From assembly GCA_964016885.1 (NCBI GenBank), contig CAXHJY010000734.1, forward strand, positions 1-26,688: a stretch of DNA of 26,688 bases. The letters are read 5' to 3'. This DNA comes from Eledone cirrhosa (Eukaryota). This document shows positions 5,795 to 12,489 of the stretch, piece after piece (the first letter of the stretch is position 1; each line of letters starts with the position of its first letter). Under the pieces are notes generated by a model. That model made no database searches. It saw nothing but the letters and a program-made list of their open reading frames with translations, and was not told the DNA's origin. The translations under genes and the position numbers were made by a program.

Positions 5795-6587
5795 ATAGTA
5801 TTAGTTATACTATTTATGGTTATGTAAACACAAAACCTTAAGCAGTTGTAAGTATTTTACACACACCCTAAATAGTGGTAGGCAGTAATGTATTACTACC
5901 TTATTACCAGTAAGTTAAGTAGCTCAATGTAAAAACATCAGATGATTTACAGAGCAGTTATATGAAATATGAAATATATGAAATATAAGAATCAAAGAAC
6001 TGTTCAAAACATTATTGTGCTTACAGCTGTTTCCTCCAAACCGAGGTTTGGATTCTTCGGAGCAATTTATTAATGCATGGACAGTTATATGACCTCCTTT
6101 TCAGCCGAGAGACATACCAATACATATTCAAACATTGATACATATTCAAACATTGTGGGTCAACATTCATTACAAAATTTAGAGTGGCAGTACACACTTC
6201 GAGATTACATTTATATTAATAGGTACAATCAAAAATCAAAGATATAGGTTAAAGTACAACATGAAGATAAGTGGTTATATAGTGCAAATGTTATATGTGT
6301 GGCACGCATGTGCGTCTTGTTTATATAGTGTGGCAGAGAGATATGTGTGGTAGAGGCACTTAGGTAGGTAAATAAGAGTGTTAGGTTGGTAGATCTGGTG
6401 GCAAAGTCTTTATATGATTGATGTAGTCTGTGTGTGGAGAAATATTATAAGTATTAAAGATAGTGCAAGCATTAAAAGTGTTATAAGTATTGGAGATGCA
6501 CAACGCAGGGATGTCAAGTAATTCATGTACTTCGGCATTTTCATGGTCCGGGGAGTGTATTTTTCGATTATATGCCTTTCACATAAT
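5795..6587 (-). repeat. Inverted partial pseudo-LTR with extension into the 5' UTR
   Basis: Reverse complement of 7680-8456 plus a 16-bp insertion at about 5971-5986 (793 vs 777 bp). Confidence 0.95.
6018..6064 (-). ncRNA. Minimal type I hammerhead ribozyme motif, inverted copy
   Basis: Reverse complement of 8203-8249. Confidence 0.8.
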
Positions 6588-6604
6588 TCGATTATATGCC
6601 TTTC

Positions 6605-8290
6605 ACAAACCACCTAATAAATTCTGTAACCTCTGTATACTAGAGACACACAATATTATCTTCTCCAACCGTAACCTACTTAACAAAAAATCTGAGGTGT
6701 TTGCAACTTGCCAACACCGCCTCAGACATTCCTTCCAAAACTTTAAGCCCTATATATAGCAATGTCGGACTGGAACCTAACACCGCATCTAGCATCAAAC
6801 ACCAGAGACACACCCTATACTACATACCCAACACTAGCTGATCCATTATAACACAAACAACGACATCCCTCTGGAACCCTTCGCAGGGAAAATACCCATT
6901 TATACCTCTACGGCAGGTGTGACAACATCCACCCACCTGGACGGCACTACACCGCTCTAAGGGTAATTTGAGCATGAATTGATCGGTTGGATGGTGTTGG
7001 GCAGAGGAAACACCTTCCTTAGACAGATGTAAAATGATTTAATCGAGTAGCGCTGTTGACCAGTAGGACCGGGCTGCTGAGCGCAGTGAGTGAATGCAAT
7101 GCAACTGCCGTGCGGGTTGTACGTATATGGATGATCTGACGGTCAGAGAGGGGTCGCGAGGACTGCGGATTGACCTTTGGCCTGCCTGGGGACGATTATC
7201 TTTCGACATCCAATGTAGCAAGCGATGACCCAGATCTTACCAGAGATCATTGGGTCCTGAAGCAATCCTGCAGTCACCGCGCCTGGTCATATGAGCGGAC
7301 TACAACCACAGAGATCATTAATTTAGAATCCTCGCTCATCATCTATAATTTCCATTTGTAGCACCTTAAGATGGGTTAATCCACCTTAATAATAATATGA
7401 TCACCTTCAGCATAATTTAGTTAAACTACTCTATAGTTAGTGCACTTTATGCTTTAAAAGTCTCTCTTGGAAGGTGCACCTCACCATAGAATTTAGGGTC
7501 CATATTGGGACACATTTTAATGGCTAGATATAGAAACCCCAGAGTTACCTCCCCGCATGCATTAACTCCCCTTAGCCACACACACACTTCCGGTATTCAA
7601 TGGCGTCTCTCGAAACGTAACAACCTCCTGTATCGAACTAAAGAACACCAGACTACGATCTCTAACTGGATTGTCGTGGATTATGTGAAAGGCATATAAT
7701 CGAAAAATACACTCCCCGGACCATGAAAATGCCGAAGTACATGAATTACTTGACATCCCTGCGTTGTGCATCTCCAATACTTATAACACTTTTAATGCTT
7801 GCACTATCTTTAATACTTATAATATTTCTCCACACACAGACTACATCAATCATACAAAGACTTTGCCACCAGATCTACCAACCTAACACTCTTATTTACC
7901 TACCTAAGTGCCTCTACCACACATATCTCTCTGCCACACTATATAAACAAGACGCACATGCGTGCCACACATATAACATTTGCACTATATAACCACTTAT
8001 CTTCATGTTGTACTTTAACCTATATCTTTGATTTTTGATTGTACCTATTAATATAAATGTAATCTCGAAGTGTGTACTGCCACTCTAAATTTTGTAATGA
8101 ATGTTGACCCACAATGTTTGAATATGTATCAATGTTTGAATATGTATTGGTATGTCTCTCGGCTGAAAAGGAGGTCATATAACTGTCCATGCATTAATAA
8201 ATTGCTCCGAAGAATCCAAACCTCGGTTTGGAGGAAACAGCTGTAAGCACAATAATGTTTTGAACAGTTCTTTGATTCTTATATTTCATA
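6605..8290 (+). repeat. 5' pseudo-LTR (direct copy of the element's 3' 1686 bp)
   Basis: Matches 10804-12489 by eye except two substitutions noticed (7297 G vs 11496 A; 7855 C vs 12054 T). Starts acaaaccacc and ends atatttcata. Confidence 0.95.
8203..8249 (+). ncRNA. Minimal type I hammerhead ribozyme motif (variant core)
   Basis: TGCT-CCGAAGA-A-TCCAAAC(CTCG)GTTTGGA-G-GAAA-CAGCTG-TA-AGCA: stem I TGCT/AGCA, perfect 7-bp stem II, GAAA, palindromic CAGCTG in place of stem III, GUA cleavage triplet (cut after 8245). Confidence 0.8.
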
Positions 8291-10802: not shown

Positions 10803-10958
10803 TACAAACCACCTAATAAATTCTGTAACCTCTGTATACTAGAGACACACAATATTATCTTCTCCAACCGTAACCTACTTAACAAAAAATCTGAGGTGTT
10901 TGCAACTTGCCAACACCGCCTCAGACATTCCTTCCAAAACTTTAAGCCCTATATATAG
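10803..10958 (+). pseudogene. In-frame continuation of the endonuclease beyond the TAG (51 aa)
   Basis: The same frame continues as YKPPNKFCNLCILETHNIIFSNRNLLNKKSEVFATCQHRLRHSFQNFKPYI*, containing CxLCxxE, LLN and CxH motifs that complete the GIY-YIG domain. Confidence 0.85.
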
Positions 10959-12489
10959 CAATGTCGGACTGGAACCTAACACCGCATCTAGCATCAAACA
11001 CCAGAGACACACCCTATACTACATACCCAACACTAGCTGATCCATTATAACACAAACAACGACATCCCTCTGGAACCCTTCGCAGGGAAAATACCCATTT
11101 ATACCTCTACGGCAGGTGTGACAACATCCACCCACCTGGACGGCACTACACCGCTCTAAGGGTAATTTGAGCATGAATTGATCGGTTGGATGGTGTTGGG
11201 CAGAGGAAACACCTTCCTTAGACAGATGTAAAATGATTTAATCGAGTAGCGCTGTTGACCAGTAGGACCGGGCTGCTGAGCGCAGTGAGTGAATGCAATG
11301 CAACTGCCGTGCGGGTTGTACGTATATGGATGATCTGACGGTCAGAGAGGGGTCGCGAGGACTGCGGATTGACCTTTGGCCTGCCTGGGGACGATTATCT
11401 TTCGACATCCAATGTAGCAAGCGATGACCCAGATCTTACCAGAGATCATTGGGTCCTGAAGCAATCCTGCAGTCACCGCGCCTGGTCATATGAGCAGACT
11501 ACAACCACAGAGATCATTAATTTAGAATCCTCGCTCATCATCTATAATTTCCATTTGTAGCACCTTAAGATGGGTTAATCCACCTTAATAATAATATGAT
11601 CACCTTCAGCATAATTTAGTTAAACTACTCTATAGTTAGTGCACTTTATGCTTTAAAAGTCTCTCTTGGAAGGTGCACCTCACCATAGAATTTAGGGTCC
11701 ATATTGGGACACATTTTAATGGCTAGATATAGAAACCCCAGAGTTACCTCCCCGCATGCATTAACTCCCCTTAGCCACACACACACTTCCGGTATTCAAT
11801 GGCGTCTCTCGAAACGTAACAACCTCCTGTATCGAACTAAAGAACACCAGACTACGATCTCTAACTGGATTGTCGTGGATTATGTGAAAGGCATATAATC
11901 GAAAAATACACTCCCCGGACCATGAAAATGCCGAAGTACATGAATTACTTGACATCCCTGCGTTGTGCATCTCCAATACTTATAACACTTTTAATGCTTG
12001 CACTATCTTTAATACTTATAATATTTCTCCACACACAGACTACATCAATCATATAAAGACTTTGCCACCAGATCTACCAACCTAACACTCTTATTTACCT
12101 ACCTAAGTGCCTCTACCACACATATCTCTCTGCCACACTATATAAACAAGACGCACATGCGTGCCACACATATAACATTTGCACTATATAACCACTTATC
12201 TTCATGTTGTACTTTAACCTATATCTTTGATTTTTGATTGTACCTATTAATATAAATGTAATCTCGAAGTGTGTACTGCCACTCTAAATTTTGTAATGAA
12301 TGTTGACCCACAATGTTTGAATATGTATCAATGTTTGAATATGTATTGGTATGTCTCTCGGCTGAAAAGGAGGTCATATAACTGTCCATGCATTAATAAA
12401 TTGCTCCGAAGAATCCAAACCTCGGTTTGGAGGAAACAGCTGTAAGCACAATAATGTTTTGAACAGTTCTTTGATTCTTATATTTCATA
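10804..12489 (+). repeat. 3' pseudo-LTR (end of ORF plus ~1.5 kb 3' UTR)
   Basis: Direct repeat of 6605-8290. Ends ATATTTCATA and runs directly into (TA)n. Confidence 0.95.
12402..12448 (+). ncRNA. Minimal type I hammerhead ribozyme motif, 3' pseudo-LTR copy
   Basis: Identical to 8203-8249. Confidence 0.8.

Follow-up and report, generated by a model that had tools for sequence, protein, structure and literature searches.

Two fixed 3′ ends ahead of twin predicted hairpins in a Hydra-clade Penelope-like element of Eledone cirrhosa

A stretch of 26,688 nucleotides from the cephalopod Eledone cirrhosa (GenBank assembly GCA_964016885.1, contig CAXHJY010000734.1), which is one whole unplaced contig of a 3.0-Gb genome and which we refer to as the window, holds at positions 5795..12489 a Penelope-like element (PLE) composed of two arms arranged head to head. 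Insertions of this family have their 3′ ends at two fixed sites, typically one per arm, and each site lies a few nucleotides ahead of a predicted hairpin. The arrangement probably arose because both cut ends of the (TA)n target primed reverse transcription, one at each of the fixed sites before the twin hairpins; the copy in the window is itself broken by a stop codon.

Two end sites and the motif behind them

Both outer ends of the insertion adjoin (TA)n-rich target arrays, which occupy 5373..5797 on the left and 12487..12667 on the right (no strand assigned). An inverted arm (5795..6587, minus strand) meets a direct arm (6605..12489, plus strand) at a head-to-head junction (6588..6604, no strand assigned) that includes a short templated duplication. 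The direct arm is 5885 bp long, or 1.4 units of 4199 bp, and self-alignment revealed that it begins and ends with direct repeats of 1686 bp: the upstream pseudo-long terminal repeat (pseudo-LTR), a partial upstream unit at 6605..8290 on the plus strand, differs from 10804-12489 by 2 mismatches. Self-alignment likewise identified 5795-6587 as the reverse complement of 7680-8456, with 1 mismatch and one 16-bp gap, and in the window the short arm is contained within the long arm. The inverted arm does not stop where the direct repeat does but continues for another 166 bp, as far as the equivalent of 8456. The repeating unit is therefore 4199 bp long and permuted, with the 166-nt tail (8291..8456, plus strand) as its 5′ leader. 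The near-identical direct repeats, the 5′ inverted copy, and the (TA)n on both sides had been claimed in a preliminary description of the sequence, and all three hold. Indeed, the traits of PLEs that carry an endonuclease (EN+), namely partial tandem pseudo-LTRs, an inverted 5′ copy, and a one-sided tail, are all present. The central junction was bridged by no contig of four sequencing runs, which carries no weight either way, and neither an empty-site allele nor a duplicate of the left flank was found in the assembly.

The 3′ ends of insertions fall at site A (12489-12491, equivalent to 8290-8292) or at site B (8455-8456), 166 nt apart. The window insertion has its site B end on the left, where the inverted arm stops (the equivalent of 8455/8456), and its site A end on the right, where the direct arm stops; a hammerhead motif and the first hairpin motif also lie in the inverted arm, which has a 16-bp stutter at site A. 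We examined all 59 insertions on contig C1 that hold an exact sense 30-mer. Thirty-five had one arm at A and one at B, one had both at B, and five had one non-canonical end; the remainder paired one arm with a short stub of the other type (five) or were single-armed (13). The first 20 insertions listed on C2 comprised 15 A+B, one odd, and four single-armed cases. When the two sets were pooled, 50 of the 51 insertions with both ends at fixed sites had one arm each at A and B (p = 2e-14), and an automatic pass over 54 simple two-arm loci returned 47 A+B, one B+B, and six with an odd end. The same pairing was seen in a sister family (80% amino acid identity), for which all six insertions with both ends seen, among eight loci, were A+B, and, as judged by eye, in three distant families (35-38% amino acid identity), in which one of each was found in 15/15, 5/5, and 6/6 insertions (26/26 in all, from 40 loci of which the remainder were single-armed or had an end outside the stretch). 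In the distant families the ends lie 3-9 nt ahead of the motif described below. Longer TA runs inside the unit never serve as ends. At least 13 A ends on C1 bear short stutter repeats of the end sequence, a trace to be expected of repeated re-priming. The one-sided tail of PLEs has been published before; we found no paper that states or counts the pairing rule, in a search that stopped short of subscription reviews, Repbase, and Dfam.

Directly after both sites stands the 9-mer TAACTGCTC, which occurs exactly twice per unit. The two copies each form the base of a predicted GCTC...GAGC stem, and the sister family retains both. The first motif (8296..8329, plus strand), a predicted bulged hairpin, lies 5 nt 3′ of site A, and the second (8462..8478, plus strand), a predicted hairpin, lies 6 nt 3′ of site B. 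To relatives in metagenomes we applied the pattern GCTC-N4-32-GAGC: among the 45 of 78 loci that had an N-terminus and 150 nt of leader, 28 leaders contained at least two motifs, 12 contained one, and five none, as against a mean of 0.04 motifs, and never two, in shuffled leaders. The motifs are spaced 55-83 nt apart in the metagenome leaders (median 63.5), compared with 166 in the window family. True 3′ junctions lay 0-12 nt ahead of a motif in 11 of 15 cases (p ~3e-6), a set that leaves out contig-end cases and one tandem; two more were placed there by eye and two lay elsewhere. Two elements have T-A in place of G-C as the outer stem pair of both motifs, and one family of the genome has two further paired stem changes (by eye). 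Separately, we note that the leader of a family with a 758-codon frame and a unit of up to 5.4 kb carries variants of both motifs that still pair (ACTC...GAGT and GCAC...GTGC).

One copy of the motif is visible by eye in four published Hydra consensus sequences of PMC8557442; the twin motif goes unmentioned in the sections of that paper examined, and the portions seen of PMC13282606, PMC2377424, and the preprint 10.64898/2026.07.22.740005 contain nothing on it. We found no paper stating the twin motif; subscription reviews, Repbase, and Dfam were beyond the search and may bear on its novelty.

Origin of the two arms

How did the two arms come about? Over the 43,764 sites at which arms overlap, 205 lineage variants and 56 private variants are common to both, with 25 discordant lineage variants and 98 private differences; the preponderance of shared over discordant variants argues that the two arms derive from one source element. 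Neither arm contains the other in 21 of 47 A+B insertions, one contains the other in 26, and the center is palindromic in three. A central microhomology of 1-6 nt is present in 30 of the 47. Nine A arms and 14 B arms are longer than one unit.

These counts bear on the idea that the first cDNA folded back and was copied into the inverted arm, or that this arm came from antisense-RNA self-priming (PMC3846280), with ends that reflect TA microhomology only. The nesting seen in the window and in the 26 insertions would suit such an origin, as would the fact that sites A and B both end in TA. But the non-nested arms, together with the rarity of palindromic centers, exclude fold-back copying for those 21 insertions, and the longer internal TA runs go unused. 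We therefore regard this origin as very improbable.

We propose instead that the GIY-YIG domain would cut both strands of (TA)n, and that the reverse transcriptase (RT) would bind the hairpin 3′ of each start site, each cut target end then priming at one motif-marked site, A or B. Two RT molecules would work on one uncut multimeric or circular RNA; both cDNAs would extend back along it, and their far ends would be joined by microhomology. The upstream partial unit may supply a promoter, as it does in Drosophila Penelope. With two binding sites on one RNA, the one-of-each rule would follow without further assumptions. In vitro, the Poseidon element PAc of Anolis cuts both strands and extends both (Frangieh et al. 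2024, PMC11167929), and its RT begins at two internal sites, which mark the boundaries of the tail.

Another possibility, which we think unlikely, is that both target ends primed on two separate RNAs, an asymmetric protein-RNA complex assigning A to one and B to the other. The summed arms exceed one unit plus tail in 30 of the 47 A+B insertions, so the same sequence was copied twice, and in 12 both arms are longer than 2 kb. Two templates would avoid strand displacement, and a single active source per cell would give shared variants equally well. Yet clear mixed-sublineage arms are wanting, the 25 discordant lineage variants being scattered among 205 shared ones, and with two RNAs the one-of-each rule needs an extra cause.

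Less likely still is that copying starts at a single site and that the endonuclease, recognizing the motif in its DNA form, then cuts one end back to the other site. "EN-mediated resolution" was proposed as the origin of the tail by Craig et al. (PMC8557442), the Penelope tail is reported to be needed for endonuclease recognition (as cited in PMC11167929), and GCTC...GAGC is an inverted repeat in DNA as well. However, the spacer between the halves of the motif varies from less than 10 to about 75 nt, with stems of its own, the stutter repeats suggest that priming takes place at A ends, and PAc starts reverse transcription at both boundaries of its tail in vitro (PMC11167929).

Several observations count against priming by both target ends on one hairpin-bearing RNA. 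An enzyme starting at B would have to displace the cDNA made from A. Not all insertions follow the pattern: 17 of the 79 pattern-picked insertions are single-armed, one is B+B, and six have an odd end. The start sites of PAc show no strand difference in vitro (PMC11167929), and therefore strict pairing is not reproduced there. Covariation in the stem is thin: in a scan of 77 anchored motifs the outer pair co-changes in four and is unpaired in six, and the third pair never covaries. Taken alone, the hairpins show no exceptional folding stability (leader z −1.8 to −2.7), and the figure of 28 in 45 overstates the number of independent cases because the metagenome loci include near-duplicates. Finally, the proposal for the window family comes from sequence comparison, and the stop in the window copy (see below) may have been introduced by mis-assembly, the contig being small and unplaced.

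A broader form of the proposal is that a duplicated hairpin stands behind two RT starts throughout the Hydra clade, and that an RT-endonuclease pair engages the two hairpins of a single RNA, uncut or circular, and is primed once per target end. We give this generalization an even chance. If true, it would account for three features together: the pseudo-LTR, the inverted arm, and the one-sided tail. As the window family would tolerate both the 166-nt spacing and a weakened hammerhead (described below), the identity of the hairpin, rather than distance or ribozyme cutting, would set the starts. The origin of tandem and inverted PLE insertions with a one-sided tail was named as unresolved in PMC8557442 and was partly answered in vitro by PMC11167929; a short conserved cis-signal from which both end sites can be predicted, in families that are 30-40% identical, makes the start-site question directly testable. 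The motif also gives curators a simple rule for finding the true ends of Hydra elements, and, since the RT is the closest kin of telomerase, it would be worthwhile to test whether a hairpin defining where copying of the template begins is a parallel between the two. The element itself adds one more member to a known clade, in a broken copy.

A broken copy of a young family

The RT-GIY-YIG open reading frame (ORF) lies at 8499..10958 on the plus strand and has 819 codons when an in-frame TAG at 10800..10802 (plus strand), private to the window copy and inside the endonuclease, is read through as X. The long frame extends from 8460 to 10802, with its first ATG at 8499, and the TAG falls 52 codons ahead of the family stop (10956-10958), so that the CxxC, the conserved E and N, and the CxH of the endonuclease are all downstream of it. 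A sense codon is present at this position in all 29 other copies fetched. The exact 30-mer carrying the stop has one match in the genome, compared with 424 for the sense version, and is not present in the four runs where the site is covered. Thus, the window copy is broken, or mis-assembled at that base, and the preliminary description was mistaken in calling it structurally complete. Read-through, or a subfamily bearing the stop, was considered and rejected in view of the single match.

Both domains of the protein are supported by predicted structure, the endonuclease being cut short in the window copy. An AlphaFold2 model of the RT (pLDDT 87) has telomerase RTs as its top Foldseek rows (E ~1e-8). 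The C-terminal 148 residues, with the stop as X, match I-TevI (Z 8.9, rmsd 2.5, 89 aligned residues), and the endonuclease region matches T4 EndoII (Z 7.8); Foldseek rows 1-10 for the endonuclease are all GIY-YIG, though with E values of 0.28 or weaker. Pfam returned neither RT nor GIY-YIG above cut-off for the read-through protein, and a profile search of solved-structure sequences with the element protein gave 0 matches. Asn-rich, disordered inserts lie at about residues 484-535 and 629-673.

The family is abundant and, as had been supposed, young. The 424 exact sense 30-mer matches indicate hundreds of near-identical copies, and divergence from the per-site majority has a median of 0.57% among the 59 C1 insertions (40 of them below 1%), a set biased to young copies because it was picked by an exact 30-mer. 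Sixteen of the 21 ORF-spanning arms at pattern-picked loci are open from end to end, and frames of at least 826 codons were found in 68 of 71 score-ranked matches. The family is likely still active. Long pieces that are 98-100% identical to window positions 8291-12489 also appear in four runs under four different organism labels; close relatives, contamination, or transfer may each account for them. Among the runs listed as carrying the sequence, none was of RNA.

Two features of length received attention in the preliminary description. The first, an "unusually long pseudo-LTR," is not a trait of the family: the 5′ ends of arms are scattered across the whole unit, and one arm is about 2.4 units long. 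The 1686-bp pseudo-LTR is incidental, marking where copying of the window arm stopped. The second, a long 3′ untranslated region (UTR; 10959..12400, plus strand), is real. It includes a CpG-richer stretch at about 11260-11410, is 73% identical to that of the sister family, and places the hammerhead core 1447 nt after the ORF stop, compared with a median of 129 nt and a maximum of 515 in the 44 of 64 metagenome relatives in which a hammerhead was found, values that are biased low by short metagenome contigs. It has no second ORF of more than 73 codons and none common to the sister family. Three other families of the genome with Hydra motifs have units of approximately 3.3, 4.2, and 4.5-5.4 kb (range 3.2-5.4).

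A minimal type I hammerhead motif, overlooked in the preliminary description, lies at 8202..8249 on the plus strand, with a predicted cut after 8245. It recurs in the downstream pseudo-LTR (12401..12448, plus strand, predicted cut after 12444) and in the inverted arm (approximately 6018-6065, minus strand). It has an 8-bp stem II, a palindromic stem III that is altered on both sides in the sister family, and the core CCGAAGA, a U4C variant found in 168 of 177 family matches and 17 of 20 sister-family matches. The core is CTGA in all 44 metagenome relatives with a hammerhead and in all 26 Hydra rows of File S2 of PMC8557442. The architecture is that of a hammerhead at the usual place for the Hydra clade; the core is non-canonical and cleavage is predicted only. 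Rfam gave no hammerhead match on the window, and the region has a fold z of −0.7 to −1.5 (−1.8 to −2.7 for the leader). A natural U4C variant of a viroid hammerhead shows lower cleavage in vitro (Perreault et al. 2011, PMC3088659).

A pile-up of 5′ ends at the predicted cut was looked for and rejected, as the cut coincides with the 5′ end of just one of 94 arms. Because arms also pass through the cut site, the template was evidently uncut or rejoined. Uncut RNA serves as template for PAc in vitro (PMC11167929), and a circular-template model has been put forward for more-than-unit copies (PMC4209133).

Other families of the genome show related features. The leader of a 713-codon family has CAGAAGA where the hammerhead core usually lies, position 4 again being non-canonical, and a 714-codon family has two distinct hammerhead-like motifs per unit, about 0.4-0.5 kb after the ORF and in the leader, as well as a (TA)/(TG) microsatellite within its 3′ UTR. 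In the window itself, a short two-armed piece of another Hydra family lies at 13060-13290, 400 bp to the right of the element; it resembles the leader of the 758-codon family and has a canonical CTGATGA hammerhead core. Positions 4900-5170 are about 80% similar to a 216-bp tandem unit on other contigs and have no open frame in the window copy. Finally, 18650-21775 is a 3-kb (GTG/GTA)-rich satellite with a 33-bp period and long low-complexity frames, for which we found no coding evidence.

Clade assignment and comparison with known systems

The motifs named in the preliminary description (CxCx5C, KxCxLCxxE/CxxC, and CxH, with no CCHH) stand up to comparison with PMC8557442, in which Craig et al. 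define the Hydra clade by DKT, CxCx5C, CxxC/CxH, the absence of CCHH, and insertion in (TA)n. The protein has RWR at residue 38, DKT at 123, YRDD, CxCx5C at 678, CxxC at 776, and CxH at 804 (the last two behind the stop in the window copy), without CCHH or the N-terminal GxKF/Y. Among 120 homologs, 82 have RWK and 33 RWR. As judged by eye, the blocks FDITMGSSDSAQ, GLYRDD, FFNPPF, and IKISYS agree with the Hydra rows of Fig. S7 of PMC8557442 and disagree with the Penelope, Nematis, and Neptune rows, and a divergent RT4(B), Hydra-type thumb and linker blocks, and the lack of an IFD match the Hydra clade as well. Traits of Neptune, Penelope-Poseidon, Nematis, and Naiad (the CCHH finger, DKG, the N-terminal endonuclease of Naiad) are absent, and local identity to Neptune-type fragments of the genome is 27-31% over about 100 residues. 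On the strength of these motifs, compared with section 11 and Fig. S7 of PMC8557442, assignment to the Hydra clade is supported.

Protein searches returned 313 matches at E ≤ 0.001, the best of them 38-46% identical. Among the 120 matches listed, the only informative name was that of a protein of Argonauta hians (39% identity); the annotation of this Hydra-type RT reads GATA zinc finger protein, apparently an error for an Asn-rich retroelement protein. The RT phylogeny suggested in the preliminary description was run as a 39-row tree that has three Neptune-type fragments of the genome as its outgroup and contains no named Hydra, Poseidon, Nematis, or Naiad reference. The family groups with the Argonauta protein (99/94) among DKT-type relatives, and together with the DKT/CxCx5C relatives it is split from the Neptune-type fragments (100/100). 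The suggestion of a possibly undescribed cephalopod family fared less well in one respect: a Hydra family of Octopus bimaculoides, Hydra-1_Obim (2507 bp), is already in File S1 of PMC8557442. The window family is distinct from it, as judged by eye rather than by alignment.

The element is thus a Hydra-clade family with three departures: a 4.2-kb unit, a 166-nt tail, and a U4C hammerhead. With the Hydra clade as described in PMC8557442 it shares a single ORF for RT and C-terminal GIY-YIG, DKT, a divergent RT4, the CxCx5C linker, the absence of CCHH, CxxC plus CxH, (TA)n targets, a hammerhead motif near the 3′ end, and an inverted 5′-truncated copy, as in Penelope-13_HM with its inverted 5′ copy. 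It differs in its unit of 4199 bp, as against the 1080-3045 bp listed, thereby exceeding the general tendency of the clade to be short (<3 kb), a tendency that is not diagnostic; in its 3′ UTR of 1447 nt; in RWR in place of RWK; and in two Asn-rich inserts. Its tail of 166 nt compares with the 30-40 bp given for PLEs in the same paper. Its hammerhead motif resembles the minimal type I hammerheads described from PLEs (Cervera and de la Pena 2014, PMC4209133) in its long stem II, short stem I, palindromic stem III, and position in the pseudo-LTR; it differs from these, and from the U4C viroid variant, in that the U4C core is fixed in the window family and its sister. Finally, the family and PAc (PMC11167929) have in common two RT starts that bound the tail, extension of both strands, an uncut RNA template, and an AT-rich target, whereas PAc belongs to another clade, its start sites are within the ORF, as part of an AC-rich stem loop, and neither a one-site-per-end rule nor a repeated signal is reported for it.

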